In this document: positions 15,612 to 51,816 of the stretch, piece by piece | Layout: each line of letters begins with the position of its first letter | Numbering within the stretch: the first letter of the stretch is position 1 | Source: Desulfomonilia bacterium | Lineage (GTDB): Bacteria > Desulfobacterota > Desulfomonilia > UBA1062 | Direction: 5' to 3' | NCBI GenBank assembly: GCA_050014195.1 | Contig: JBEKDT010000002.1 | Coordinates: forward strand, 320,001-384,000 | Length of the DNA stretch: 64,000 nucleotides | Made by a program: the position numbers and the translations under genes | Notes under the pieces: generated by a model | The model's database searches: none | Told to the model about the DNA's origin: nothing | The model's input: the letters and a program-made list of their open reading frames with translations, nothing else

Positions 15612-16322
15612 CTATTCAGGTATAAGATCCTCAAATAGGCTTGGAGCCATGGCCATGACGTCATTGAACATAAGATATGCCAGGCGTCTGATCTCCCATT
15701 CAGCGGATTTTTCCAGGCGAAGCTCAAAGAAATGCCGTAAAGAACGGGCATTGACATAGACATAAGCAGCCGTGGACCACCCCACGGGCATGAGCCTTCT
15801 CAGCTCCTGGTTGCGCACCCCGAGTGACTGGAGCTCTTCATAGACCTCCATGGCATGCTTGTGCTCCCGGTCATAGGCCTCATAGACTTTCCTTACCTGG
15901 TCTTCGGATTCGATGTACTCCATTGCCGGGTAGATGAACAAATTCTTATTGGCCTTCACATACCTCGTGGAACGGAAGGTCCACCCGATACCGATGCGGT
16001 GACGGGTCCATTGGCCGGCCAGAGACTTGGATACGCCGGTCACATAGTAGACAAACTGCACGGCCTCAAGGCAGGTATGGTGGCCCCATGAGATAAGCTT
16101 TTTATTAAGCCTCAGGTCGTCCTCGTGGGTGCCTTCGGACTCATGGCTTTGCCTGGCTGTATAGGCAGGCAGCGTCTCGATCGTGACACCCTGGGATGCA
16201 ATTTCTTCGATCGGCGTTGTTACACCGATGAGCTTTATCATGGGCTCTTCGTTTCTAAAGAGACTCTGCCTGAGATGTCTCCACCTTTCAATGTGTTCCA
16301 GCTCATGATTAAAATACTTCAA
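15612..16322 (-). CDS. thyX: Flavin-dependent thymidylate synthase
   Basis: GHHTCLE, RHR-X8-STRY, NARSLRHFFELR...AEWEIR. Confidence 0.9.
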   Translation of the reverse strand: MKYFNHELEHIERWRHLRQSLFRNEEPMIKLIGVTTPIEEIASQGVTIETLPAYTARQSHESEGTHEDDLRLNKKLISWGHHTCLEAVQFVYYVTGVSKSLAGQWTRHRIGIGWTFRSTRYVKANKNLFIYPAMEYIESEDQVRKVYEAYDREHKHAMEVYEELQSLGVRNQELRRLMPVGWSTAAYVYVNARSLRHFFELRLEKSAEWEIRRLAYLMFNDVMAMAPSLFEDLIPE

Positions 16323-16903
16323 AATGGTCTCTCCTCCTCGCCATTTGTTGAAACCCTGTCACCCTGCCACACACCCCTGTAAGGTACTGCCTTACCCTCA
16401 ATGGGGAAAAAGGCAATGCACAGGATGCGGAACCCCATCTGAATCTCCACCTCCATGAGCCCTTGATGCTTCATACCTACCGTGAGCTTCCCCTGATAGT
16501 TGGGAGATATAAAAGCCGTTTCCAGAGGGATGCCTGAACGGATCAGCGTCGTTCGCGGCCTGATATAAGCAAAAAGATCACCCGGCAAATTAATCTGCTC
16601 AATGGTCTGGAATAGCAGGTATTCACCCGGCTTGACAACGAACACCCCATCAGGAGAATCGATGATGTCCATGAGTTTCTCTATCTGAGGGGTGACCCTG
16701 CTGTCCCGCATGAGACGAGCAGCGCCTACGGGCCTGTATATGGCTCCCAGCCTTAGGTCCACGGTAGTACCCTCAATGCCGTCAATCTGGTCAGAGTCGA
16801 GATACTCGACAAGGGGTTTCTTTACACTTTTACCCGAAATATGATCTTCCACGCCAACACCGCCGCGGACCATCTCGATGATCCTGTCAGCCCCCAATAC
16901 CAT
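16319..16903 (-). CDS. Trimeric dCTP deaminase/dUTPase-family protein (possibly dUTPase)
   Basis: VDLRL, PGEY, PRTTLIRSG, SPNYQG, YRG.WQG; no Glu at the Dcd catalytic position. Confidence 0.8.
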   Translation of the reverse strand: MVLGADRIIEMVRGGVGVEDHISGKSVKKPLVEYLDSDQIDGIEGTTVDLRLGAIYRPVGAARLMRDSRVTPQIEKLMDIIDSPDGVFVVKPGEYLLFQTIEQINLPGDLFAYIRPRTTLIRSGIPLETAFISPNYQGKLTVGMKHQGLMEVEIQMGFRILCIAFFPIEGKAVPYRGVWQGDRVSTNGEEERPF

Positions 16904-17440
16904 CTACAACCTCCTCTTCGATGTGTCTGAACTCATGAATAGTAAGGCATTCTCCATTGTCTCATCATGGATAATAATCTGTTCAACCGTCGTGCGGCTT
17001 AAGGAAAGCACATCCTTCCAGTATTGGTCGCGCTCAGGGATGGGCGAGTCATAGGGATGCTCGTAGACTACCCTGGTGATGCCAGACATCACGATAAGCT
17101 TTGAGCAGGTGATACAAGGCTCGAGCGTGCAATATATGGTTGATCCCTCGAGGCTGACCCCTTTTTTTGCTGCCAGTGATATGGCATTGGCCTCTGCATG
17201 GGCAGACCTGCACATATCATACTTCATGGCCTCGGGCCACTTGAGCGACCTCCGGAAACAAACCCTATCATCCATGCAGTGTTTTTGGCCCGGAAGAGAG
17301 CCGTTATAGCCTGTTGTAATGACCTGCTTGTCATTTACCACCACTGCACCAGTAGGCCTTGACAGACACGTTGAGCGTGATGCGGCAAGCTTGGCCAGCA
17401 TCATGAAATATTCATCCCACGAAGGTCTCTTCTGATTCAT
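16904..17440 (-). CDS. dCMP deaminase (ComEB-like)
   Basis: RPSWDEYFM, TGYNG, HAEANA, EPCITC; start set at MNQKRP. Confidence 0.92.
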   Translation of the reverse strand: MNQKRPSWDEYFMMLAKLAASRSTCLSRPTGAVVVNDKQVITTGYNGSLPGQKHCMDDRVCFRRSLKWPEAMKYDMCRSAHAEANAISLAAKKGVSLEGSTIYCTLEPCITCSKLIVMSGITRVVYEHPYDSPIPERDQYWKDVLSLSRTTVEQIIIHDETMENALLFMSSDTSKRRL

Positions 17441-17648
17441 ACCGGCAGCCTCAAAACTTCTGATTATTAACCAACAGGTGGGCTCCATATAATACGAAGT
17501 CCTTGAACCTGTAAAGAATCAACAGGTACATTCCCATTAATAACTCACCATACCATGGACAAAGTCCTGACCATGCTATAAATATAATCATAAATAGGCT
17601 TTTTCGCCATGATGAACAAGAAATTTCGGATCATCAGAAGGTGCGTGA

Positions 17649-19680: not shown

Positions 19681-19695
19681 GTATGAGTTTGAAAG

Positions 19696-19736
19696 GAAAT
19701 ACGGACCGAGGCATGTCGCCTGCGGCCCGCTATTTC
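19696..19736 (-). terminator. Terminator of the HMGR-like/DUF2156 unit
   Basis: - strand GCGGGCCG-C-AGGC-loop-GCCT-CGGTCCGT followed by ATTTCCTTTC. Confidence 0.6.
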
Positions 19737-19749
19737 ATTAACAAAACAA

Positions 19750-20817
19750 TTACAGGATATTAGAAATCATGAACACCGTGAGCATGGACTTCGATGGCAG
19801 TATTTCTCGGTGTGCACAGAATGTCTTTTGCACTGCTCCATCAAACCTGGACTTGGTGAAGTATAATCCCTTGAAGCTGTATATCATGTTCCCAAACTTA
19901 TAGAGCAATCGGATAACCATCTTCAGGAGCTTTGACTCGCAGGGCTCATCCTGATCATCCACAACCGCCGGGCAAAGGCCGAGGTGCAAATACTTCACAC
20001 CCTCTTTCTTGAAGACCTCCATGGCATGGCACATGAGGGGATAGAAGATCCCCTGCTTGAACTTGTTGCTGAACCGGGAGATGTTGGGCACATAGCTGAC
20101 TACCTTGCCGTCCTTATAGAGCGGATCGAAGCAGATAAAGCCTACGAGTTCTCCATCATGGTATGCACAGAACTTTCTTGTACCTTCCTGGTATTCTTGG
20201 TCCATGGGGCGGATGAGAAAAACGACCTCGCGGTTTCTGACCTTGCGGGTCTTGAGCCATTCCTTGGTGAGCTGGTGGCACCCATCTTCTGAACAGTTCT
20301 CTTCTATCGTCACGCCCTCTTTCTTGGCATGATTTACCGATGTCCTCATGACCTGCTTCTTCTTGCCCTTGAGATCCCATTTCTCAAGATCAACGACTGA
20401 TTCGATACCAAACTGGGTCGCGTAATACCCGAACTTTTCATGAAGAAATTCTCCCATGCCCTGAGAGATCTGGATAAAGGCCGTGTTTGTCCTATCCTTG
20501 AGAAACTCCCGGATGAGGAGTTCTCTATCTTTCACATCACAGACAGGGTCAGCAAGGACAAATCGCGTACCCCATTTCTTCCTGAAGGTGATGAACCCGA
20601 CCCCTGACATATCGAAAAAGTGCATTTCTGGTTGCAGCATTGAAAAGGACAGGCAGTGATCACCGTATTTCCTGAGATAGGAGATCCTCTCATCAAATGT
20701 GAAGACATCAATCCCTGTACGGGTCCCGGGTCTATAATCATCTATGGAGATAACCTTGGCTGGGAAGAACTCCCCTGGACTATCTACGAGTGGTTTTACC
20801 TGCGCCATGGTACTCAT
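19750..20817 (-). CDS. Stand-alone DUF2156 / phosphatidylglycerol lysyltransferase C-terminal-like (aa-tRNA-dependent transferase) protein
   Basis: LADPVC, FGIESVVDL..WDLKGKK, LVGFICFDP, LHLGLCP, YSFKGLYFTKSRF; no TM flippase domain. Confidence 0.85.
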   Translation of the reverse strand: MSTMAQVKPLVDSPGEFFPAKVISIDDYRPGTRTGIDVFTFDERISYLRKYGDHCLSFSMLQPEMHFFDMSGVGFITFRKKWGTRFVLADPVCDVKDRELLIREFLKDRTNTAFIQISQGMGEFLHEKFGYYATQFGIESVVDLEKWDLKGKKKQVMRTSVNHAKKEGVTIEENCSEDGCHQLTKEWLKTRKVRNREVVFLIRPMDQEYQEGTRKFCAYHDGELVGFICFDPLYKDGKVVSYVPNISRFSNKFKQGIFYPLMCHAMEVFKKEGVKYLHLGLCPAVVDDQDEPCESKLLKMVIRLLYKFGNMIYSFKGLYFTKSRFDGAVQKTFCAHREILPSKSMLTVFMISNIL

Positions 20818-20853
20818 ATATTCATCTCTCCTTTTTTGTTATCCGTTCATGTC

Positions 20854-22461
20854 CTAGCGATTTTTCCCGAAACGCTCATGGCTTGTAACCCAATCCAGTG
20901 ACGAGAGCGCACCAGCTAGCGAGATCTCTCCAGCCATCACTACGGCAGCTGCGATCTCGGCAAGCTTAAGAACCTTGCCTTGTCCGTAACAACCGAGAAT
21001 CTCCAGACATTCTTTTTGTGTAGGAAGGCCGGTACCGCCGCCGTGGGTTGCCACGATGAGGGAAGGAAGCGTTATGGAGGCATAGAGGTCCCCTTCCGGT
21101 GTAATCTCTGTATAGATAAGCGTGGTAGTGGATTCGGCCACATTGGCCACATCCTGTCCTGTGGCAATGAACAATGCCGTCAGCGCGTTTGCCGCATGGA
21201 GTGCATTGCTCGATGAACCTGCCATGAAGGAGCCTAGGCTGGCTACCCTGCAGAGATGATCAAGCGTCTCGGGATCCACCCGCATATGCTGGATCATGAC
21301 CTCTCGCGGAATAACGATCTCCGCCGTGACTCTCTTCCCCCGTGTGTTCATGGTATTGATCAAGGATGCCTTCTTATCGGTGGCGAAGTTCGATTCCATA
21401 TAGAAATGGCGGACCGTATTTACCTGGGAGAGGATCCAGCTGCATGCCGTAAAGGTGGCCATGCTCACCATGTTCTGCCCTGCTGCATCGCCTGTGAAAT
21501 AATTGAATCGCAGGTAGATGAACTTGCTCGCCTGGTACCTTTCTATATTGAGAAGCTTTGCAACCTTGGAGCAAGACTCAGCCTGCCCCTTGATTTCATC
21601 CATATGCTCATCGAGCCATGTCACGAAGTCCCTGGCCTCTCTGGCTGATTCGAATGCGAATGCAGGGGCCCTTTGCATGCGGTCTTCAACAACGGTGACA
21701 GTAACACCGCCGCACATATTGATGATTTTCATGCCCCGATTATAGGATGCAACCAATGTCCCTTCACTGGCGCACAAGGGGATGAGGAACTCGCCTTTGG
21801 CATGTTCGCCATTGACCTTCAACGGTCCGGCAAATCCGAGGGGGATTTGTGCCACACCGGTAAAGTTTTCGATATTCCCTTTTGTTACGGCAGGATCAAA
21901 GGAATGATGCTTTACATGATGAAGGTGAACGCCGGTATACTCTTCCACGAAATCCTGGCGCTGACGGACGATATCCATGTCGTAATTGTTCTGCTTGTCG
22001 CATGGTATTTTTTTCTGTGTTGACCTGGTCTCAATAACCGAGTCTGTGGCTTCCAGATCCAGTATGCCGTAAGGATCGGTATTGCAGGATATGATGATCT
22101 GATGTTCGACATTTTTTGCAAGGGCGATTGCCTGTGCATGAAACTCTACATCCATGCCCATGGGGAAAGGAAGAGCCTGGTCCTGGTTTATCTCGCTGGC
22201 CTTGAGTCTTGTTCCGTTATTCCTCATGGTCACATCATCAAGGGGGATTTCAAGTCCATTGATGATGAGGCCGGAAACGCCTGTAATGATAGCGTCTTTC
22301 ATGGGATTTTTGATGTTGAATGATACACCGTCTTCGACATTCTTCAGGCTTCCAATAGAATAGATCTTTTTCATGATGAGCGGAGATATCGTTACATGAC
22401 TCTTGGGTTCCGATGCCCTCGTGATGGATACAAGCCTTGGTTCTGTCGTTGTATTTCTCAT
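20854..22461 (-). CDS. Class I HMG-CoA reductase-like enzyme with an extra N-terminal domain
   Basis: ENFTG, SEGTLVAS, GDAAGQNM, NFATDKK, GQD, GGGT, C-terminal SHER; start set at MRNTTTE after GAAAGG. Confidence 0.9.
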   Translation of the reverse strand: MRNTTTEPRLVSITRASEPKSHVTISPLIMKKIYSIGSLKNVEDGVSFNIKNPMKDAIITGVSGLIINGLEIPLDDVTMRNNGTRLKASEINQDQALPFPMGMDVEFHAQAIALAKNVEHQIIISCNTDPYGILDLEATDSVIETRSTQKKIPCDKQNNYDMDIVRQRQDFVEEYTGVHLHHVKHHSFDPAVTKGNIENFTGVAQIPLGFAGPLKVNGEHAKGEFLIPLCASEGTLVASYNRGMKIINMCGGVTVTVVEDRMQRAPAFAFESAREARDFVTWLDEHMDEIKGQAESCSKVAKLLNIERYQASKFIYLRFNYFTGDAAGQNMVSMATFTACSWILSQVNTVRHFYMESNFATDKKASLINTMNTRGKRVTAEIVIPREVMIQHMRVDPETLDHLCRVASLGSFMAGSSSNALHAANALTALFIATGQDVANVAESTTTLIYTEITPEGDLYASITLPSLIVATHGGGTGLPTQKECLEILGCYGQGKVLKLAEIAAAVVMAGEISLAGALSSLDWVTSHERFGKNR

Positions 22462-22926
22462 TGTCCTTTTCCTTTCATTGAATCTGGAATATATTCCAAT
22501 TTGCCGATTGCCGGTTATTCCATAGAGAGATCTTGACCATACGTATTGATAATCACGAAACGTGCCAAGATTGGGCAAATAAATTACGAAACTACCCCCA
22601 GTTGAATATCAGGGGTTGTCTAGTATTTATTTTATCATATTTAGTTATTTCAATCAGTTATGAAACATTATACTGGTGGATAATATTTTGTTATGTGTAT
22701 TATTTTTCCACTATTCGAAGAAAAGCTTTTCCTGGGAATTATTCTCAGGGCTTATTTCCCCGGGCTAGGATTCAAGGATGATACCAGTCATGATAGAAAA
22801 AATCATAATGGTTTACCAAGCGAAGATTAAACTGCTATGAAAAATAGCAACAAGTATTCGTAGGGGTGGTTCAATATTCAATGCCAGCGTAATGGTGCCC
22901 ATAACGGTAAACGAAAAGATATTCTT

Positions 22927-24777
22927 ATGATTTCTACAAAAGGGTTAATTACAAAACTCACCATACGTCTCGAGCTATACATCAATCTCATTGTAGTTCC
23001 TTTGGCCGTATATTACGGAACCATTGCAGGAATGTTTCAGGGTAAAAAGTTATTATACGTTATCTATACCGCAATAATCTCAGCAACCCTTGCCACCCTC
23101 TTCGGCATGTCCATCCGTATCTGGAAGCTTACCGGGATCTTGAATGCCCTTAATGCAGGGACAGAAGACTATGCAACGATCAAGCTTGATCTTCTCTCAT
23201 ACCCCACAACCGAGAGTATTGTCATTGTCCTTCGATGGGTCCTCGGCCTGATGTGCCAATATGCTATTTTACAGTCATCGGTTGGGATTACATGGTTTGA
23301 GACATTGCCGGTATTCTTTATCCTTCTTCTCTGTGTACCCATAAATAGCATAATATCCTATTGCACTACGGAACATCTCCTTTCGCCTGTCCTCATGGAT
23401 GATCGCATCAAAGGCGTACACCTCCCACGGGATTCATATACCTTATTCAGCGCCTCTTTCAGAACTACACTCATCGTCATCTCTGTCCTTATCATTCCAC
23501 TGGTCACCCTGGGGCACTTTCTTTTCATATCCAATCTACAGGCATTCAGGCTGAGCGACCTCTCTATCAATGTTTTCATCATCATGGCGCTATCTCTCGC
23601 TGCTATCTTCGTAACCGTGCATGAATCGAATGCAGGAATACATACGGGCCTGAAGATGACCCTGGATACCCTGGAGGAACTGGAGAAAGGGAATCTGCTT
23701 GTGGAGCCCATACCATTGTTAGCCAAAGGAGAGATCGGAATCATTAGTCAATCGGTGAATGTACTGGCCCATTCTTTGCGGAATTCGGAAGAAATGTTCT
23801 CAAAGGCATTTAGATCCAGCCCTGTTGGAATTGTCATATGGAGGATACAAGACGGTTGTTTTCTCAATATAAATGAAAGCTTTCTCAAAATATCGGGGTT
23901 TTCAAGAGATTCTGTCTTAGGGAAGACCCTTGAAGAGGCAGGATTGTTCAAATCGATCTCTGATTACTACAGGATCGTCCAGACCCTTCAAGGACTTGGG
24001 CAAGTCAGAGGATTCGAAACGGAATTATGTACCAATACCAACGAGATCAGGATGGTCACAATCTCTGCAGAGATAATTATGCTCTCGGATGAACGGTGTA
24101 TGATAGCCACAATAGAAGATGTTACTGAGAAAAAGACCCTGGAAAGAGAGATCCTCAGTATCGGCGAAAGAGAGCGACAGAAAATAGGCCAAGACCTGCA
24201 CGACGATCTCACACCACATCTGATAGGCATCGAGGTCATGAGCGAGTTATTGAAAAAAAAGCTCCAAGAAAACAGTGTCCCTTCAACAAGTGAAGCAGAA
24301 AAGATTAGAAGTCTGATTGAACAGGCTATTCAAAAAACAAGGAGACTCTCCAGGGGATTATGCCCGGTATTCCTCGCCGACCACGGGCTTGAGTCACTAC
24401 TGCAGGAGATGGCGTCAAACATTAAAGAAGTACATGGGATAACTTGCAATTTCAACTATCAACGATCCATTCTCATTGATGATATTTCAATATGTACCCA
24501 TATATATTATATCGTCCATGAAGCTATCTATAATGCCATAAGACACGGAAAGGCAGACAGGATTACTATTGATTTATTGTATAAAAATGGTGTTGTAACA
24601 CTTACAACCGAAGATGACGGCATAGGCATCCGAAACAATGAGAGCCCTCAAGGTATGGGGCTCAAGATTATGAATTTTCGCGCGAATATGATAGGGGCGG
24701 ATTTAAAAATTAAGAGTAATCCGAATGAAGGGACAAAAGTAATATTATCATTCGAGTATGATGGTTATAATAAATGA
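22927..24777 (+). CDS. Membrane sensor kinase (multi-TM, HAMP, PAS, HisKA_3, HATPase)
   Basis: ~6 TM helices, PAS, ERQKIGQDLHDDL, EAIYNAIRHG, DDGIG, GMGL. Confidence 0.92.
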   Translation: MISTKGLITKLTIRLELYINLIVVPLAVYYGTIAGMFQGKKLLYVIYTAIISATLATLFGMSIRIWKLTGILNALNAGTEDYATIKLDLLSYPTTESIVIVLRWVLGLMCQYAILQSSVGITWFETLPVFFILLLCVPINSIISYCTTEHLLSPVLMDDRIKGVHLPRDSYTLFSASFRTTLIVISVLIIPLVTLGHFLFISNLQAFRLSDLSINVFIIMALSLAAIFVTVHESNAGIHTGLKMTLDTLEELEKGNLLVEPIPLLAKGEIGIISQSVNVLAHSLRNSEEMFSKAFRSSPVGIVIWRIQDGCFLNINESFLKISGFSRDSVLGKTLEEAGLFKSISDYYRIVQTLQGLGQVRGFETELCTNTNEIRMVTISAEIIMLSDERCMIATIEDVTEKKTLEREILSIGERERQKIGQDLHDDLTPHLIGIEVMSELLKKKLQENSVPSTSEAEKIRSLIEQAIQKTRRLSRGLCPVFLADHGLESLLQEMASNIKEVHGITCNFNYQRSILIDDISICTHIYYIVHEAIYNAIRHGKADRITIDLLYKNGVVTLTTEDDGIGIRNNESPQGMGLKIMNFRANMIGADLKIKSNPNEGTKVILSFEYDGYNK

Positions 24778-24797: not shown

Positions 24798-25454
24798 ATG
24801 AACATCGCAAAAAAGGTTAAGATATTGATTGTAGAAGATCATGAGATATTCCGGCTAGGAATCAAAGAACTTATCAACCATGAGCCTGATCTGGCTGTGT
24901 GTGCCGAGGCGGAGGATGTAGATACGGCCAGGACACTGATTAATGCATTTCAACCTGATATGGTCATTATTGATATAACGCTAAAAAAGAGCAACGGCAT
25001 GGATCTCATTAAGGAGATCAGCTCATTCCATAAGACCATGAAGATGCTCGTTCTGTCTATGCATGATGAGCTTCTCTATGCTGAACGGTCTCTCCAGGCA
25101 GGTGCGCAAGGTTATATCATGAAGCAGGAGACCTCAAAATCTATAGTCAAGGCCATTCGTCACATCTTACAAGGTAACATCTATGTAAGCGAGAATATTA
25201 TGAGCAATCTTCTGAACAGAGTGAGAACAGGCCAAGATAATTTCGAGAAATCACCTGTAGAAAACCTTTCCGATAGGGAGCTTGAAGTCTTGAGAATGAT
25301 AGGACAAGGAAGATCAACCGGTGAGATAGCCGCTGAAATGAACCTGAGTGTAAGTACCATCAGTACGTATCGTGAAAGAATCAAAGAAAAGCTCCAGTTA
25401 AAAAATTCTGCTGAGCTCATACGATATGCCGTCCACTGGGTAGAGGATAATTAA
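24798..25454 (+). CDS. NarL/LuxR-family response regulator
   Basis: VEDH, DITL, LSMH, LSDRELEV HTH. Confidence 0.95.
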   Translation: MNIAKKVKILIVEDHEIFRLGIKELINHEPDLAVCAEAEDVDTARTLINAFQPDMVIIDITLKKSNGMDLIKEISSFHKTMKMLVLSMHDELLYAERSLQAGAQGYIMKQETSKSIVKAIRHILQGNIYVSENIMSNLLNRVRTGQDNFEKSPVENLSDRELEVLRMIGQGRSTGEIAAEMNLSVSTISTYRERIKEKLQLKNSAELIRYAVHWVEDN

Positions 25455-25772: not shown

Positions 25773-27632
25773 ATGGCTAACGGATATGCAGGAAAATTCT
25801 TACATGTCAATTTAACAGATTCCACCTGTTCCGACTTCATCATTGATGATGCCACATTGCAAAAATATATCGGTGGGAGTTGTCTTGCTGCAAAGCTCTT
25901 CCTCGACAGGTATCCCATAAATCTCGATCCGCTGGCTCCGGACAGCCCCTTTATGATTATGACAGGCCCCATGGTGGGCAGCGGCTTTCCCGGCACATCA
26001 AGGTTCAGCATCTCTGCAAAATCTCCCCAGACAGGGATCTGGGGCGAGTCCGCATGCGGGGGTACCTTCAGCCCGGATCTGAAGCGGGCAGGTTATGATG
26101 GTATTGTGATTGAGGGAAAGGCCAAATCTCCCGTTTACCTCGCCATTACAGATGACAGTGTTCAGATCCTGGATGCCTCCCATCTATGGGGCAAAGACAT
26201 CTATGAAGCCACTGATATCTTAAAAGAAAAGGATAAATCCTTCAAGGTGCTGACAATAGGCCAGGCCGGCGAAAATAAGGTGTTGATCGCTGCTATCGGC
26301 AATGACAAGGGTCATTTCAGCGGCAGGACAGGTCTCGGGGCTGTCATGGGATCAAAAAATCTGAAGGCCATCATCGTGAAAGGTTCAAAGAAGCTATCCA
26401 AGGCAGATGATGAGAAATTTAAGCTGTTCCAGAAGGAAGCCATGCAGGAGGTGAAAGATTCGGCCCTTGCAGACGGCATCCACCAGATGGGGTCCGACGC
26501 CAACATGGACCTTGGGATGATCACTGGCGATGTACCCATCAAGAACTGGACCGTTGGCCAGGACTTCGAGCTTTCCTCCAACTTGAGCGGACCGACCATG
26601 AAAGAGAAGTATCTCACCAAGGCCCATGCATGCTCGAACTGCCCCGTTGCCTGCAAGAGGGTGGTCAAGGTTGACGACGGCCCTTTCAAGACAGAGGAAG
26701 GCCCGGGGCCCGAATACGAGACCTGCGGCACCTTCGGGACAATGATGATGAATCCCGATCTGGCTGCCGTGATAAAGGCCAATGAACTCTGCAACAAGTA
26801 CGGCATGGACACCATCAGCTGCGGATCGGCCATTGCCCTGGCTATGGAACTCTATGAAAAAGGGACTCTGACAAAGGACGACCTGGATGGGCTCGATCTC
26901 ACCTGGGGAAACATGGATGCCGTGATGGTATTGATCAAAATGATCGCCTTCCGGGAAGGTTTTGGCAATGTGCTGGCTGAGGGAAGCTTGAAGGCCGCCC
27001 AGAAGATAGGAAAAGGGACAGAAGACCTTGTTGTCCAGGTCAAGGGCCTCGAGGCCCCTATGCACGACCCGAGGGGGTTTCATGGAATGGGCCTTGCCTA
27101 TATGATGTCCAACAGGGGAGCCTGCCACCTCCAGCACGCAGTACTTGCCACAGAACAGGGCATGGCCTCGTGGCCCCAACTCTTCGACATGAAGGACGAC
27201 TACATGGGTACGACCAGTGTCGGCAAGGCGGCGTTGGTATACAATTCCGAGAACTACGGCATCCTGGGGAATTCGCTCGCCATCTGCCACTATCTCATCT
27301 ATATATTAAAACCCGAGACCATCCTTGGTGCCTTCAATGCGGTTACCGGCTGGAATCTGAGCTCCCAAGACCTTCTCAAAGCAGGAATGAGGGACTGGAC
27401 CCTGAAACGTGGCTTCAACAACCTGCTGGGAATCACGGCTAAAGATGACAAGCTCCCCAAGAAGCTCTTGACAGCCCTCGAGGAAGGAGGGGGGGCGGGT
27501 TCAGTGCCCGACGTAGAGCTCCTCTTGAAAGAGTACTACATCCTCAGGGGACTCGATGTTCGTGGCTATCCAAAGCAGGAGAAACTCGTTGAACTTGGCC
27601 TTGATGAATTAAAGAACAGACTCTATACATAA
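25773..27632 (+). CDS. aor: Tungsten-dependent aldehyde:ferredoxin oxidoreductase (AOR/WOR family)
   Basis: KSPQTG, GRTGLGAVMGSKNLKA, CSNCPVAC, GPEYET, GMDTIS, DPRG, RGACH. Confidence 0.93.
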   Translation: MANGYAGKFLHVNLTDSTCSDFIIDDATLQKYIGGSCLAAKLFLDRYPINLDPLAPDSPFMIMTGPMVGSGFPGTSRFSISAKSPQTGIWGESACGGTFSPDLKRAGYDGIVIEGKAKSPVYLAITDDSVQILDASHLWGKDIYEATDILKEKDKSFKVLTIGQAGENKVLIAAIGNDKGHFSGRTGLGAVMGSKNLKAIIVKGSKKLSKADDEKFKLFQKEAMQEVKDSALADGIHQMGSDANMDLGMITGDVPIKNWTVGQDFELSSNLSGPTMKEKYLTKAHACSNCPVACKRVVKVDDGPFKTEEGPGPEYETCGTFGTMMMNPDLAAVIKANELCNKYGMDTISCGSAIALAMELYEKGTLTKDDLDGLDLTWGNMDAVMVLIKMIAFREGFGNVLAEGSLKAAQKIGKGTEDLVVQVKGLEAPMHDPRGFHGMGLAYMMSNRGACHLQHAVLATEQGMASWPQLFDMKDDYMGTTSVGKAALVYNSENYGILGNSLAICHYLIYILKPETILGAFNAVTGWNLSSQDLLKAGMRDWTLKRGFNNLLGITAKDDKLPKKLLTALEEGGGAGSVPDVELLLKEYYILRGLDVRGYPKQEKLVELGLDELKNRLYT

Positions 27633-28089: not shown

Positions 28090-28224
28090 CAAGGAGTAGG
28101 AGACACCAGGCTCATCCTACATTGGTGTAGGTTTAGCTGAATCCGGGATACGCGAGCAGCAATCGTCCTAATGCATTCGTTTATGTAAGGACGTTTGTCT
28201 ACGGATATCCATAAGGAGCGAGGC

Positions 28225-29388
28225 ATGGGTTACGATTCAGATCTATCATTCAATTATTTCGGACCGACCAAGATCATCTTCGGTATAGATGCATCCAAGG
28301 ATGTGGAGATCGAGATGGGCCAGCTGGGCGGGACCAAGGCGGTCGTGGTCACGGACCAGGGCATCATGAAGGCAGGCCTTATTGACCACATTGTAAAGGC
28401 CCTCGGCAGCAAGTGCGTGGGCGTCTTCAGCGACGTCCCTCAGGATACCGGGGTGGAGGTGGTCGATGCGGGTGCCTCCTTTGCCAAGAAAAACGGAGCG
28501 GATATAGTAGTCAGTGTTGGCGGCGGCAGCGTCATCGACACCGGTAAGGGCATGTGCATCCTGCTCACCGAGGGTGGAAACCTGCGGGACATCAATGGGG
28601 TCCAGCTTCTGTCAAGGCCCCAGACCCCGCACGTCGTGATCCCCACCACTGCAGGCACGGGCAGTGAAGTGACCAATGTCGCAGTCATCATGGACAAAGA
28701 GATGGGCCAGAAGCGGCTGGTCGTTGAAAATTTTAATGTCCCCCGGCTTGCCATCCTTGACCCCAAGATGACGGCCAAGCTGCCCAAGCTCATGACCGCA
28801 GGCACGGGCATGGATGCCATGACGCATGCAGTGGAGTCTCTCCACGCCTTACCTCACGAACCAATAACCGATGCGCTGGGTATCCATGCAATAAGGCTTC
28901 TGTCCCGATACCTGCCGGTATGCATAGAGAACGGAAGCGATCTCGTTGCCAGGGGCCAGGTGCAGATTGCAGCCACTATAGCCGGATGGGCATTCGGCAT
29001 CGCGGGTGTTGGAAATGTACACGCCCTGGCACATTCCATCGGTGCTGTTGCCCATGTACCGCACGGCATAGCCAATGGAATCCTTCTGGCAGAATGTATG
29101 GAATTTAACATTGAGAGTTGCCCTGATGCCTATGCCATGGTGGCCGAGGCCTTCGGTGTCCGCGAGAAGGGTATGGATGACATGGGTGCCGCCAAGGCAG
29201 CCATTGCCGCCATCAGGAGATTCACCAAGAAAATCGGACATCCTCAGAAACTCTCGGAGATGAAGGTGAAAGAGGATGATATCGCTAAGGCCGCCGAGCT
29301 GAGCCTGGGTGATGGAGCTATTGTCAACAATCCGCGCTTGGTCCTCGACGCATCCGAAATGCTCGAGATTTACAAAAAAGTGCTTTAA
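28225..29388 (+). CDS. Iron-containing alcohol dehydrogenase
   Basis: GGGSVID, PTTAGTGSE, DAMTHAVE, HALAH, HG; start after TAAGGAG. Confidence 0.95.
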   Translation: MGYDSDLSFNYFGPTKIIFGIDASKDVEIEMGQLGGTKAVVVTDQGIMKAGLIDHIVKALGSKCVGVFSDVPQDTGVEVVDAGASFAKKNGADIVVSVGGGSVIDTGKGMCILLTEGGNLRDINGVQLLSRPQTPHVVIPTTAGTGSEVTNVAVIMDKEMGQKRLVVENFNVPRLAILDPKMTAKLPKLMTAGTGMDAMTHAVESLHALPHEPITDALGIHAIRLLSRYLPVCIENGSDLVARGQVQIAATIAGWAFGIAGVGNVHALAHSIGAVAHVPHGIANGILLAECMEFNIESCPDAYAMVAEAFGVREKGMDDMGAAKAAIAAIRRFTKKIGHPQKLSEMKVKEDDIAKAAELSLGDGAIVNNPRLVLDASEMLEIYKKVL

Positions 29389-47657: not shown

Positions 47658-48329
47658 ATGAAAGACGAACACGGGATAAAAGACGGATACTGGTTAATGG
47701 GGTTTCAGTATGAGTTTACCGGCAGTCTTTATAGTTTGGGGCAGATTCCACGATGTAAAGTTGCAATGCTGGATCATTTGAACAGGGATGATAAACTCCT
47801 CGTAGCAGGTGTGGGACATGGCATTGAAGCAATAGAAGCCGCCAAGAGAGGGGTTAATGTTACGGCGGTTGATATTTCAAAAACCATGTTAAAGTACATG
47901 CAGAAGAAAATTGACCGGGCAAACCTGGATAAGCCGATACAGATAATAAACAATAATATCCTTAATGTTAACTATCCTGCCGAGTATGACATGGTTATAG
48001 CAAACTACTTCCTGAATGTGTTTCCAAAAGAAAAGATGCTGCAGATTCTGACCCATCTCACAACCTTTGTAAAACCCGGCGGGTATATGGTGATAGGCGA
48101 TTTTGCGCTGCCGCTAAGCGGCGGATGGTTCTATAAGGCATTTCAAAACATCTATTGGTACTTAGCTGCAACACTCTACTGGCTTACCGCGGATAATGCC
48201 GTCCATCCCATATATGATTATCCCGGTCTTCTCAAATCATTGGGCTTTGAGATAGCTGAGATAAAGTATTGTAAGATGCTTACCATGAACTGCCATTGGT
48301 CTATACTGGGAAAGAAAAAGGCGGCATAA
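47658..48329 (+). CDS. Class I SAM-dependent methyltransferase (paralog 1)
   Basis: LVAGVGHG, VTAVDIS, ANYFLNVF, KPGG. Confidence 0.9.
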   Translation: MKDEHGIKDGYWLMGFQYEFTGSLYSLGQIPRCKVAMLDHLNRDDKLLVAGVGHGIEAIEAAKRGVNVTAVDISKTMLKYMQKKIDRANLDKPIQIINNNILNVNYPAEYDMVIANYFLNVFPKEKMLQILTHLTTFVKPGGYMVIGDFALPLSGGWFYKAFQNIYWYLAATLYWLTADNAVHPIYDYPGLLKSLGFEIAEIKYCKMLTMNCHWSILGKKKAA

Positions 48330-48390: not shown

Positions 48391-49041
48391 ATGAAAGACG
48401 GGTATTGGCTGGTTGGATATCAGTATGAGTTGTCTGGTTATTTATACAGCTTGGGACGGATTCCCAAATGTAAATCAGCTATGCTCAAACACCTTAACCC
48501 GAACGACAAGGTGCTTGTCGCCGGCGTCGGGCACGGGACGGAAGCGATAGAAGCGAGTAGGCTGGGTGCGGATGTAACGGCTGTCGACTTGTCGGAGACC
48601 ATGCTCAATCAATTTCGTAAGCGCATAGCAAAGGAGAACCCTCCCAAAGAGATCCGGGTCATCCATGATGACATCTTCAATGTCAAGGATACCGGGCAAT
48701 ATGACATGGTGATTGCCAATTTCTTCCTGAATGTTTTTTCCGAAACAAGGGTGGTGGAAGTAGCAAACCACCTTGGGACACTTGCCAAACCGGGCGGCTA
48801 CTTTGTTGTGGGAGAATTTGTTCTGCCGGAAAAAAACGGATGGCGAGGGATTCTTCAGAGGGCCAACTGGTATTTCGCCATAACGTTTTACAGCGCTACC
48901 ACGGAAGCGGTTTTTCACCCGGTGTGGGATTATCCTGCCCTCGTGGAGGGATCCGGCTGTAAAATCCAGGAGATTGAATATTTTAAAATTTTTAATACCA
49001 ACTTGTACTGGTCGATCTTGGGAAAAAAATCTAGACAATAA
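48391..49041 (+). CDS. Class I SAM-dependent methyltransferase (paralog 2)
   Basis: Same motifs as the upstream paralog (LVAGVGHG, ANFFLNVF, KPGG). Confidence 0.9.
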   Translation: MKDGYWLVGYQYELSGYLYSLGRIPKCKSAMLKHLNPNDKVLVAGVGHGTEAIEASRLGADVTAVDLSETMLNQFRKRIAKENPPKEIRVIHDDIFNVKDTGQYDMVIANFFLNVFSETRVVEVANHLGTLAKPGGYFVVGEFVLPEKNGWRGILQRANWYFAITFYSATTEAVFHPVWDYPALVEGSGCKIQEIEYFKIFNTNLYWSILGKKSRQ

Positions 49042-49086: not shown

Positions 49087-51816
49087 TTGGTCTTCATGAA
49101 AGAATCGATTAAAAAGAAGAAGATCAAACCACAAGGATCGCCGGGGATCTCACATCGAGACACACGACCACTCATGACAAGGGGCGCTTTTTTCATTGTC
49201 GGTATCGGTGCGTCCGCCGGAGGACTGGAGGCGCTGGAACAGCTCCTGGGCAATGTATCAGAGGGCAGAGGCATAGCCTATGTCATCGTCCAGCACCTGG
49301 ACCCCACACACAAGGGTATCATGCCCGAGCTCCTGCAACGCATGACACACATGAAGGTCACCCAGGTAAAAGACCGCACACCGGTCAAACCGGGCCAAGT
49401 CTATGTGATCCCGCCGAACAAGGACATGTCGGTCCTGCATGGGGTTCTTCATCTGCTCGAGCCCACAGCGGCGCGGGGGCTTCGTCTGCCGATTGATTTC
49501 TTTTTCCGCTCCCTGGCAGAGGACCAGCGGGAACACAGTGTGGGCATTATCCTTTCGGGCATGGGCACCGACGGCACGCTGGGTATCAAGGCCATCAAGG
49601 AACTTGGTGGGTTGGTCCTGGTGCAGGATCCGGCCACCGCCAAATTCGACAGCATGCCTCGCAGCGCCATAGGAACAGGGCTCGTCGATTATGTGGCTCC
49701 GGCAAAGGAACTGTACGGCAAGCTCATTGACCTTCTCCAACACCCCCTTCGCGACCAGCGGGCCGAGCCTCTCCTGGAAAGCAAGATGCAGTCGGCTCTG
49801 GAAAAGATCATAATCCTGCTCAGGACCCACACGGGCCAAGATTTCTCACTGTATAAAAAGGGCACCTTGTACCGCCGGATCGAGCGGCGCATGGGCATCC
49901 ACCAGATTGACAAGATCGCCCATTATGTCCGTTTTTTACAAGAAAATTCCCAGGAGCTGGAGCTTCTCTTCAAAGAGCTCCTCATCGGCGTAACGAATTT
50001 TTTCCGGGATCAGGCAGCCTGGGAGTACCTGAAGGAGCATGCCATACCGGCCCTCCTGGCAAGCAGACCGGATGGCGGCTTGATCCGGGCATGGACCCCG
50101 GGCTGCTCTACAGGCGAGGAGGCCTACTCGCTCGCCATCGTGTTCAAGGAGGCACTGGATCGTAGCAAACTTAAGGGGAATTATACGTTGCAGGTCTTTG
50201 CCACCGACCTGGACAAGGATGCCATTGATAAAGCCCGCCAGGGCGCTTACCCCTCCAACATTGCCGCGGATGTCTCCCCCGAGCGCCTGCACAGGTTTTT
50301 CGTCAGGGAAGAGAGCAGCGGCTACCGGGTCGTCAAGGATATCCGCGAGATGGTGATAATGGCGGTGCAAAATGTCACCATGGATCCGCCCTTTACCAAG
50401 CTGGACATCCTGATATGCCGGAACCTCCTGATTTACCTTACCCCGGAATTGCAGAAAAAGATCTTACCGTTGTTCCATTACAGTTTGAACCCAGGCGGTA
50501 TCCTGTTCCTGGGGAGCGCCGAGACCACCGGCGGCTTTTCCGACCTCTTCACCCCGCTTGAAAGAAAATGGAGGATCTATCGGCGCAAAGAGTCTCATGG
50601 AAAAGCGAGGCTGGTGGAATTACCGTCCTCATTCTTCATTGAGCCCCCGGCCCTTCTCAGAGAGGCAGAACTGCCCGCGCCGGTACCAAATCTCCAGTCA
50701 CTGACGGATCAGCTGATACTGCAGCAATTCTCCCCACCCGCCGTACTGATCAACGACAAGGGCGACATCCTCTACATCACCGGCAAAACGGGCAAGTATC
50801 TTGAACCGGCAGCCGGCAAGGCCAACTGGAACATTTTTGCCATGGCCCGTGAAGGGATGTACCATGAGTTGTCACGCGCCTTCCAAAAGGTGCTACGGCA
50901 AAAAGGCAACGTCACCATACAAGGTCTGAAGGTAAGGACCAATGGCACAGAGCATGTCGTGGACTTCACCCTCCAGGCGATTGAAGAGCCGGAAGCCCTG
51001 CAAGGGATGTTCCTGGTCGTCTTTAAGGATGTGGCGACCTCCACCGGCAGGAAACCGGCTGTCCGCGTCACGGGCCATTCATCACCACACGCCGCTATCG
51101 CTGAACTGGAGGAGGAGAGCAGACACCTCCGCGAGGATCTGCTGAATACCCGTGAAGAGATGCAGACCTCACAGGAAGAGCTCAAAGCAACCAACGAAGA
51201 GCTTCAGTCCGCCAACGAGGAGCTGCAATCCACCAATGAGGAACTGACCACGTCCAAGGAAGAGATGCAGTCTCTGAATGAGGAACTGCAGACGGTCAAT
51301 GCCGAGCTGCAATCCAGGGTGGATGAGCTTTCGCGATTGAATAACGACATGAAGAACCTGCTCAACAGCACGGAAATCGCCACAGTGTTTCTGGACAAAA
51401 CACTCAATCTGCAGCGGTTCACCCCCCAGACGACCCGGATCATCAAGCTGATCCCAGGCGATGTAGGACGGCTCATCACCGACATCGCATCCGACCTGAT
51501 CTACCCCGCAATGCCCGATGACATTCGGGACGTGCTGCAGACGCTGGTGTTTGTGGAAAAGCAGGTTACTACCCGGGACGGACGCTGGTTTCTCACGCGC
51601 ATCATGCCATACCGCACCCTCGAGGACAAGATTGACGGCGTAGTGATTACCTTTACGGACATCACCGTAGCCAAGACTCTCGAGATGGAACTACGCCGGT
51701 CGCACGACGAGATAGAAGCGAAGGTTGCAGAACGCACTCTCGAGCTTGCAAAGGCAAACGAGGAGCTTCTCTCAGAGATTGCTAAACACAGACAGGGACG
51801 AATCGATAAAGGCTAG
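49087..51816 (+). CDS. CheB methylesterase / CheR methyltransferase / PAS fusion
   Basis: GASAGG, QHL, GMGTDG (CheB triad); GCSTGEEAYS, CRNLLIY (CheR); coiled coil; PAS. Confidence 0.94.
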   Translation: MVFMKESIKKKKIKPQGSPGISHRDTRPLMTRGAFFIVGIGASAGGLEALEQLLGNVSEGRGIAYVIVQHLDPTHKGIMPELLQRMTHMKVTQVKDRTPVKPGQVYVIPPNKDMSVLHGVLHLLEPTAARGLRLPIDFFFRSLAEDQREHSVGIILSGMGTDGTLGIKAIKELGGLVLVQDPATAKFDSMPRSAIGTGLVDYVAPAKELYGKLIDLLQHPLRDQRAEPLLESKMQSALEKIIILLRTHTGQDFSLYKKGTLYRRIERRMGIHQIDKIAHYVRFLQENSQELELLFKELLIGVTNFFRDQAAWEYLKEHAIPALLASRPDGGLIRAWTPGCSTGEEAYSLAIVFKEALDRSKLKGNYTLQVFATDLDKDAIDKARQGAYPSNIAADVSPERLHRFFVREESSGYRVVKDIREMVIMAVQNVTMDPPFTKLDILICRNLLIYLTPELQKKILPLFHYSLNPGGILFLGSAETTGGFSDLFTPLERKWRIYRRKESHGKARLVELPSSFFIEPPALLREAELPAPVPNLQSLTDQLILQQFSPPAVLINDKGDILYITGKTGKYLEPAAGKANWNIFAMAREGMYHELSRAFQKVLRQKGNVTIQGLKVRTNGTEHVVDFTLQAIEEPEALQGMFLVVFKDVATSTGRKPAVRVTGHSSPHAAIAELEEESRHLREDLLNTREEMQTSQEELKATNEELQSANEELQSTNEELTTSKEEMQSLNEELQTVNAELQSRVDELSRLNNDMKNLLNSTEIATVFLDKTLNLQRFTPQTTRIIKLIPGDVGRLITDIASDLIYPAMPDDIRDVLQTLVFVEKQVTTRDGRWFLTRIMPYRTLEDKIDGVVITFTDITVAKTLEMELRRSHDEIEAKVAERTLELAKANEELLSEIAKHRQGRIDKG
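51154..51312 (+). repeat. Coding heptad repeat (EELQSxN)n, degenerate 21-nt period
   Basis: EEMQTSQ-EELKATN-EELQSAN-EELQSTN-EELTTSK-EEMQSLN-EELQTVN. Confidence 0.8.

Follow-up and report, generated by a model that had tools for sequence, protein, structure and literature searches.

A recurrent gene pair of an FcrA-type fatty acyl-CoA reductase and a freestanding DUF2156 protein in Desulfomonilia: a candidate pathway for fatty-alcohol-based amino lipids

We analysed a window of 64,000 nucleotides from a Desulfomonilia bacterium (GenBank assembly GCA_050014195.1, contig JBEKDT010000002.1, positions 320,001 to 384,000), in which a gene resembling class I 3-hydroxy-3-methylglutaryl-CoA (HMG-CoA) reductase (HMGR) is followed by a gene for a freestanding DUF2156 protein. 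Our results place the reductase, by its sequence, in the FcrA family of fatty acyl-CoA reductases, and its pairing with DUF2156 recurs in the same genome, in related genomes and in metagenomes. We propose, and give the proposal an even chance, that the two genes form an operon for making an amino lipid from a fatty alcohol: the alcohol produced by FcrA would be esterified with an amino acid by the DUF2156 protein. FcrA would carry out a four-electron, NADPH-dependent reduction of a long-chain acyl-CoA to a fatty alcohol, its N-terminal beta-domain would hold the alkyl chain, and the soluble DUF2156 protein would transfer an amino acid from an aminoacyl-tRNA to the alcohol hydroxyl to give an O-aminoacyl fatty alcohol (an alkyl ester of an amino acid). 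At some loci a small S-adenosylmethionine (SAM) methyltransferase may then N-methylate the amino head group of the product. We infer the aminoacylation of a fatty alcohol from the DUF2156 fold, a basic helix, the linkage of the genes and the fungal example ErgS; the aminoacyl-tRNA donor and the role of the methyltransferase are likewise predicted.

The reductase

The reductase comprises 535 amino acids from its ATG, or 574 if the TTG at 22578 is used, and matches PF25653 at residues 29-142 (83.3 bits) and PF00368 at residues 165-532 (410.9 bits); against TIGR00533 it scores 353.7 bits, under the cut-off of 441.8. An earlier, sequence-only reading of the window had called it a class I HMGR-like reductase that keeps the catalytic E/K/D/H motifs and has an altered DAMGMN motif. 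The active site is as that reading described. Glu559, Lys691, Asp767 and His866 of human HMGR correspond to E198, K363, D437 and H528 in the alignment to 1dq8, all four are invariant among 17 aligned homologues, and the protein reads GDAAGQN where human, plant and archaeal HMGR read GDAMGMN. The HMGR catalytic fold is retained, but residues specific to FcrA argue against a mevalonate-forming HMGR.

FcrA was described by Grossi et al. (2025, ISME J 19:wraf035; PMC11948995, cited here from its main text) as a family that is sister to class I HMGR. The FcrA that they assayed reduced acyl-CoA of C14 and longer to fatty alcohol with NADPH, did not reduce HMG-CoA and was uninhibited by 10 uM simvastatin. 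FcrA proteins keep Glu559, Lys691, Asp767 and His866 of HMGR, while Ser684 becomes acidic (Glu360 in the FcrA of N. pharaonis), the HMG-binding lysine becomes a small residue and Leu862 becomes tryptophan; many of them carry an N-terminal Lad domain of 10 beta-strands and an unstructured linker (PMC11948995). The HMG-binding lysine is printed there as Lys795, which, from the residue offsets of the paper, we read as Lys735.

None of the three canonical HMGR pocket residues is conserved in the window protein. The position of Ser684 is taken by E356 in the 1dq8 alignment, and 45 of 45 long homologues have D or E there. Lys735 (1dq8 chain position 314) falls on V406, or on A407 in the alignment to archaeal 6hr7. 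Leu862 is replaced by W524, four residues before the catalytic H528 (1dq8 alignment), and tryptophan occupies this position in all 45 long homologues; W524 and H528 are both invariant in the 17-sequence alignment. A pattern search found a tryptophan before the catalytic histidine in 46 of 47 sequences, and the single miss (short_C12) reads DWISSH on inspection. The AlphaFold2 (AF2) model of the reductase, built from the 17-sequence alignment, has exactly 10 strands at residues 40-142 and a linker with a predicted local distance difference test score (pLDDT) below 50 at 144-149, and by position and description PF25653 probably corresponds to the Lad domain. The protein thus shares with the FcrA of 'Ca. 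Promineifilum breve' (Pb-FcrA) and of N. pharaonis the HMGR fold, the catalytic residues, the three pocket changes and the Lad domain. On these sequence characters it is a member of the FcrA family, with an acyl-CoA activity predicted from the assayed homologue, and mevalonate is an unlikely product because of the three pocket changes and the N-terminal alkyl-carrier domain.

Elsewhere in the phylum, in other families, PF25653 is joined to URO-D-like domains (L029:8889-10478, L030:1956-3503, L031:561-2072), and in the metagenomic protein P0031 it is joined to a BcrAD/BadFG ATPase domain; it therefore behaves like a mobile module and is not specific to FcrA.

The genome (4.2 Mb, scored 100% complete) encodes Dxr and IspH of the methylerythritol phosphate (MEP) pathway of isoprenoid synthesis, has only two or three GHMP kinases and has no match to mevalonate kinase (TIGR00549) or diphosphomevalonate decarboxylase (TIGR01240). 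Within the window, in agreement with the sequence-only reading, neither TIGR01835 (HMG-CoA synthase) nor TIGR00549 (mevalonate kinase) gave a match. Grossi et al. likewise described FcrA from a host that lacks a mevalonate pathway. A true HMGR, whose mevalonate or mevalonate-derived alcohol would then be aminoacylated, is favoured by the strong matches to PF00368 and TIGR00533 (the latter below its cut-off), by the conserved catalytic residues, and by a region on contig C9 (C9:77326-81138, L009) that encodes a family III CoA-transferase, a fusion of an archaeal-type HMG-CoA-synthase-like domain with a DUF35 OB-fold, and a thiolase (NF004810, above cut-off). This fusion, the only weak HMG-CoA-synthase-like match of the genome, scores 185.7 bits (cut-off 244), and with the thiolase it means that HMG-CoA could be available; the pocket residues argue against its use. 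With all three HMG-pocket residues in FcrA states, a Lad domain present, HMG-CoA not reduced by the assayed FcrA (PMC11948995) and FcrA replaced by an unrelated thioester reductase in a sister clade (see below), we regard a true HMGR as very improbable. The suggestion that the reductase makes an alcohol that is then aminoacylated hence survives in the form that starts from another acyl-CoA, while its mevalonate form is rejected on the pocket residues and the Lad domain.

The genome differs from those of Grossi et al. in having four paralogues and no wax synthase: four HMGR-like genes are present, no WS/DGAT wax synthase was found, and tblastn revealed no FAR-type reductase. One paralogue (C12:86436-89569, L013:8437-11570) is a short FcrA-like protein of 393 amino acids without a Lad domain, in which Asp takes the place of Ser684 and Trp precedes the catalytic His. 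It lies directly 5' of the gene for a long-chain acyl-CoA synthetase (664 bits against NF006134, above cut-off), in a unit divergent from cardiolipin-synthase-like and DedA/VTT genes, and resembles the FadD-FcrA unit of Halovenus. Another, the fourth HMGR-like paralogue, of 387 amino acids (C10:114286-115449, L014:8287-9450), has Ser at the Ser684 position, as in HMGR, and Trp at the Leu862 position, as in FcrA; it adjoins an ArnT/PMT_2-type glycosyltransferase and a short-chain dehydrogenase/reductase.

The DUF2156 protein

The second gene encodes 355 amino acids and matches a single Pfam family, PF09924 (LPG_synthase_C, the former DUF2156; residues 48-335; 177.1 bits against a cut-off of 27.5), over profile positions 4-297 of 298. 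It lacks a membrane domain, in agreement with the sequence-only reading: its highest 19-residue Kyte-Doolittle mean is 0.96, while the full-length MprF of the same genome has 14 segments of at least 1.6, and its score against the NCBIfam MprF model NF033480 is 99.9 bits, far from the cut-off of 600. It matches the lysyl-phosphatidylglycerol synthase domain of B. licheniformis (4v36) with an E-value of 2.8e-20. In a Foldseek search with the AF2 model (pLDDT 78.5), MprF synthase domains (4v36, 5vrv, 4v35 and 6lv0) were recovered with template modelling (TM) scores of 0.70-0.78 and probability 1.00, 4v36 being the top match (TM 0.72-0.78); FemX and other aminoacyl-tRNA-dependent transferases followed at about 0.5 and acetyl-CoA-dependent tandem GNATs at 0.3-0.4. 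A basic helix (residues 152-166) lies between the two GNAT halves, in a stretch with 8 K or R among the 27 residues 144-170; in the alignment with 4v36 it coincides with the GKK...R helix, and G151, K152, K154, R158 and K166 are invariant in the DUF2156 clade. In aminoacyl-tRNA lipid transferases this helix has been assigned to binding of the tRNA acceptor stem (PMC7334510, PMC6103681, in the parts available to us). The protein looks like a tRNA-dependent transferase, with a donor suggested by the modelled fold and the basic helix. In tandem-GNAT fold and basic helix it resembles MprF (4v36, 4v34/35, 6lv0, 7duw), but it has no flippase or membrane domain and is separated by a long branch from the MprF of its own genome; its acceptor is probably not phosphatidylglycerol (PG). 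A prediction of a complex between FcrA and the DUF2156 protein returned no verdict (score 0.00).

Freestanding forms appear to be a large group, since nearly all of the 150 matches listed from an exhaustive HMMER search (205 cluster representatives at E <= 1e-30) are 320-400 amino acids long. The same genome has a third freestanding DUF2156 protein, of 290 amino acids and outside the clade studied here, encoded between an HDOD/HD protein and a DUF4185 gene with an alpha/beta-hydrolase (C5:194960-199742, L015). HDOD-domain proteins also precede methyltransferase-DUF2156 units in Gammaproteobacteria (L042, L043, L195, L196).

The fates that Grossi et al. proposed for FcrA alcohols are wax esters and ether lipids (PMC11948995, main text). 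A DUF2156 protein that stands in for a wax-ester synthase, occupying the WS/DGAT slot and esterifying the FcrA alcohol from acyl-CoA, would agree with the linkage of FcrA to WS/DGAT in other taxa (PMC11948995), with the lack of WS/DGAT in this genome and with the common use of acyl-CoA by GNAT folds. The closest folds, however, are aminoacyl-tRNA transferases, with acetyl-CoA tandem GNATs scoring much lower, the basic helix typical of such transferases is conserved, and a wax-ester route offers no evident place for the methyltransferase that recurs at these loci. We therefore consider this explanation quite improbable. The known pathway and the one that we propose are alike in that a fatty acyl-CoA reductase (FcrA or FAR) adjoins an enzyme that esterifies its alcohol; they differ in the ester-forming enzyme, which here is a homologue of aminoacyl-tRNA transferases, and in the predicted ester, which would be with an amino acid and not a fatty acid.

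Recurrence of the pair

A pairing unique to this genome was among the findings that, by the sequence-only reading, would count against a pathway. The pairing recurs. A second FcrA-DUF2156 pair is present on contig C12 of the same genome, with 70% and 63% identity, the same gene order, a 25-nt gap and unrelated surroundings. In 122 genomes of the class, PF25653 was found in 36, all of one family. From these class genomes 49 loci with a Lad-FcrA gene were retrieved; DUF2156 is directly 3' of it in 39, missing in 4 and beyond assessment in 6 that are cut by a contig end, which gives a partner at 39 of 43 assessable loci in the related Desulfomonilia genomes. Within the family, 32 genomes carry both genes, 1 carries DUF2156 only, none carries Lad-FcrA only and 19 carry neither.

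Metagenomes scanned with a DUF2156-clade alignment yielded 80 loci. An FcrA-like gene lies within 400 nt of DUF2156 at 46 of these, and at 9 others a gene of the PF07993 (NAD_binding_4) family lies 16-83 nt 3' of it; a methyltransferase is the sole adjacent partner at 9, no such partner is seen at 3 despite at least 600 bp on each side, and 13 are too short to judge. In a tree of 65 dereplicated DUF2156 sequences, the clade is set off from the MprF domain of this genome by a long supported branch. It contains a supported Desulfomonilia group in which FcrA precedes DUF2156 (40 rows), a supported group with methyltransferase-DUF2156-FcrA-DUF2156-FcrA loci, in which the gene order is different and the unit has been duplicated in tandem, a supported NAD_binding_4 group (9 rows) and a supported group from Gammaproteobacteria (8 rows), in which methyltransferase-DUF2156 has no reductase beside it. 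Apparent natural fusions of FcrA and DUF2156 (L166, G508) were rejected, as the long spanning frames are out-of-frame artefacts of GC-rich DNA.

These arrangements bear on whether the genes share a pathway at all. Inherited synteny in one family, with the other arrangements being coincidence, might suffice as an explanation, as the unrelated thyX, dCTP deaminase and dCMP deaminase genes are syntenic at the same loci and solo copies of both genes exist. However, the pair has stayed together through duplication into an unrelated setting, reordering of its genes and tandem duplication as a unit, its reductase is replaced by a non-homologue, and the two genes co-occur across genomes as given above. 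Mere synteny is accordingly an improbable account, and recurrence supports the coupling of a four-electron acyl-CoA-to-alcohol reductase with a freestanding transferase of the aminoacyl-tRNA type as a functional unit, as had been suggested from the sequence.

Alternative partners

The NAD_binding_4 partner is unrelated in fold to FcrA, and its best solved relatives are the alcohol-forming reductase domain of MxaA and a fatty acyl-CoA reductase. Its homologues carry the source label "thioester reductase-like", and the named ones come from metagenome-assembled genomes of Thermodesulfobacteriota or Desulfobacteraceae. A non-homologous, alcohol-forming thioester reductase thus replaces FcrA beside the same DUF2156 clade, and this is our strongest reason to think that the product of the reductase is needed by the transferase.

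A SAM methyltransferase of about 215 amino acids is the other recurrent partner. It is encoded directly 5' of FcrA-DUF2156 at many loci, antisense and 3' of some paralogous pairs, and directly 5' of DUF2156 in other clades; in the metagenome set it lies within 2.5 kb of DUF2156 at 36 of 80 loci. The window has two copies in tandem (Table 1). The first is 81% identical by tblastn to the methyltransferase beside the paralogous pair in L087 and about 25 kb from the pair of the window; the second is 51% identical to the methyltransferase of L103. They are directly followed by a gene (49087-51816) for a 909-residue fusion of CheB methylesterase, CheR methyltransferase and PAS domains. Among solved structures, the methyltransferase best matches 8ys9, the bacterial phosphatidylethanolamine N-methyltransferase PmtA, which has the same length; the match is weak, with an E-value of 1.3e-6. 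Known head-group N-methylation and the proposed pathway have in common a small class I SAM methyltransferase that is genetically tied to an enzyme adding, here by prediction, a head group with an amino function. N-methylation of the head groups of amino lipids is known from OlsG and BtaB. As the automatic names of the methyltransferase extend only to UbiE-like or class I methyltransferase, we regard its action on the amino head group as a prediction.

Discussion

Our results suggest that an alcohol-forming reductase and a DUF2156 transferase act together. FcrA and DUF2156 transferases are each known, and we found no published description of their pairing. To our knowledge, tRNA-dependent lipid aminoacylation in bacteria has so far been confined to glycerolipids, as with MprF and its relatives, and the only non-glycerol acceptors are fungal sterols. 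An analogy may be drawn with these fungal enzymes, ErgS and ErdS (PMC8913301, PMC7334510, in the sections available to us), in which a DUF2156 domain moves an amino acid from aminoacyl-tRNA to a lipid alcohol other than glycerol; ErgS is, like the protein described here, freestanding, and glycylates the 3-beta-hydroxyl of ergosterol (PMC8913301). The bacterial system would differ in its host, in the absence of a fused aminoacyl-tRNA synthetase and in its proposed acceptor, a linear fatty alcohol supplied by the neighbouring gene. From the FcrA of Grossi et al. it differs in its partner, which is a DUF2156 transferase and not WS/DGAT or ether-lipid genes. Our literature search returned no paper joining DUF2156 with HMG-CoA reductase, aminoacyl-tRNA transferase with fatty alcohol, or MprF with fatty acyl-CoA reductase, and the main text of the FcrA paper (PMC11948995; supplements not covered) makes no mention of aminoacyl, lysyl, LPG, MprF or methyltransferase. 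The opinion of the sequence-only reading that such a pathway is undescribed is consistent with these searches, although the reductase family has been in the literature since 2025.

A broader reading, which we hold more tentatively and at somewhat under an even chance, is that these genes specify an undescribed class of amino lipids free of both glycerol and phosphate. These would be O-aminoacyl fatty alcohols, possibly N-methylated, produced by a three-part module of an alcohol-forming acyl-thioester reductase (FcrA or, interchangeably, the NAD_binding_4 enzyme), the DUF2156 transferase and the SAM methyltransferase; as part of the same reading, they would be found in Desulfomonilia, other Thermodesulfobacteriota and probably some marine Gammaproteobacteria.

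Several observations weigh against our interpretation. Most FcrA-linked loci come from one bacterial family and, because these genomes are kin, the family counts are not independent. Among the assessable Lad-FcrA loci, 4 of 43 (L026, L073, L086, L093) have no DUF2156, and solo copies of the DUF2156 clade occur in two genomes (G321:C56, G209:C1 and G209:C2). One paired DUF2156 gene has an in-frame TGA (G209, C23:10988-12052) and another is split in two pieces (G496, C8:57118-58103); these broken copies may be pseudogenes or reflect faulty assembly. In the gammaproteobacterial clade no reductase adjoins DUF2156, with a FAR-type gene 5-8 kb away at only 3 loci, and the DUF2156 gene follows signalling genes. 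The automatic names of the NAD_binding_4 partner range from epimerase to thioester reductase, and its substrate is unassigned. The methyltransferase is a generic class I enzyme, named automatically as "UbiE-like / class I methyltransferase", and both copies in this genome are unlinked to either FcrA-DUF2156 pair. Finally, the substrate specificity of DUF2156 enzymes is reported to be unreadable from sequence (PMC8913301, in the part available).

The coupling of the two genes could also be indirect. FcrA alcohol may enter alkyl-glycerol (ether) lipids while the DUF2156 protein aminoacylates the head group of a glycerolipid, whether PG, diacylglycerol or alkylglycerol, with flipping by full-length MprF or another protein. 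Every characterised bacterial DUF2156 enzyme acts on glycerolipids (PMC8913301, in the part available), ether-lipid roles have been proposed for some FcrA (PMC11948995), a full-length MprF is encoded in this genome about 8 kb from the second pair, and a methyltransferase acting on an amino head group would fit equally well. However, no AGPS-like or PlsC-like gene lies beside the pair in the arrangements examined (no genome search for AGPS was made), the minimal recurring units are reductase plus DUF2156 or methyltransferase plus DUF2156, and the DUF2156 clade is separated from the MprF synthase domain of the genome by its long supported branch. We consider indirect coupling unlikely.

If direct aminoacylation of the FcrA alcohol is correct, the DUF2156 protein would be the first aminoacyl-tRNA transferase in bacteria to act on a lipid other than a glycerolipid, and FcrA alcohols would have a new fate. 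The conserved FcrA-DUF2156 module, sometimes with a methyltransferase, would then represent both a new lipid class and a new type of acceptor, and would explain several "HMG-CoA reductase" genes in bacteria that use the MEP pathway and lack wax synthase. Annotation of FcrA-type genes as HMGR is misleading.

Locus layout and neighbouring genes

The sequence-only reading had described two genes 36 nt apart with one terminator. Both open reading frames and the spacing are confirmed (Table 1), and within the spacer an AGGAG sits 8 nt 5' of the ATG of DUF2156. The terminator is less straightforward: a consensus scan listed none after position 19750, but the 68 nt 3' of the DUF2156 stop form a strong hairpin (-25.3 kcal/mol, z = -4.76, matched by 0 of 200 shuffles), which is followed by a U-rich run.

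Table 1. Features of the window around the FcrA-DUF2156 pair and the tandem methyltransferases (window coordinates).
Feature	Position	Strand	Basis
FcrA-type fatty acyl-CoA reductase	20854-22461	-	Pfam, structure alignments, AF2 model
Intergenic spacer, 36 nt, with Shine-Dalgarno AGGAG for the downstream gene	20818-20853	-	
Freestanding DUF2156 / LPG_synthase_C protein, tandem-GNAT putative aminoacyl-tRNA transferase without membrane domain	19750-20817	-	
Hairpin and U-rich tract 3' of the DUF2156 stop, likely intrinsic terminator, between convergent genes	19685-19749	-	
Class I SAM methyltransferase, copy 1	47658-48329	+	tblastn, Pfam
Class I SAM methyltransferase, copy 2, in tandem	48391-49041	+	tblastn, Pfam
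PAS/HisKA_3 histidine kinase, divergent from the pair	22927-24777	+	Pfam/NCBIfam
LuxR-type response regulator	24798-25454	+	Pfam/NCBIfam

The divergent kinase and response regulator may regulate the pair; their synteny with it is restricted to close relatives (L085, L088, L096, L121, L132, L135). Just past them lie genes for an aldehyde:ferredoxin oxidoreductase (25773-27632) and an iron-containing alcohol dehydrogenase (28195-29388). In many relatives a gene of the same alcohol dehydrogenase family is directly 5' of methyltransferase-FcrA-DUF2156, sometimes with a peptidase-C45/AAT-like gene.

Genes for an HAD-IB phosphatase and an FAD amine-oxidase-like protein are convergent with the pair and syntenic at type-A loci. 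They were considered as pathway members and rejected as neighbours only, because they are absent from paralogous pairs and from other clades. A dCMP deaminase, a dCTP-deaminase/dUTPase-like gene and ThyX (15612-17488, minus strand) are syntenic with the pair in close relatives and functionally unrelated to it. The second pair (C12:139545-141892, L012:10546-12893) is followed by a gene for a 605-residue fusion protein, in which a membrane Acyl_transf_3 domain is joined to a periplasmic SBP_bac_3 domain of the amino-acid-binding type, and then by a DUF6160 protein; the fusion was dropped as a candidate pathway member, as it recurs only in the near-identical contig L139.

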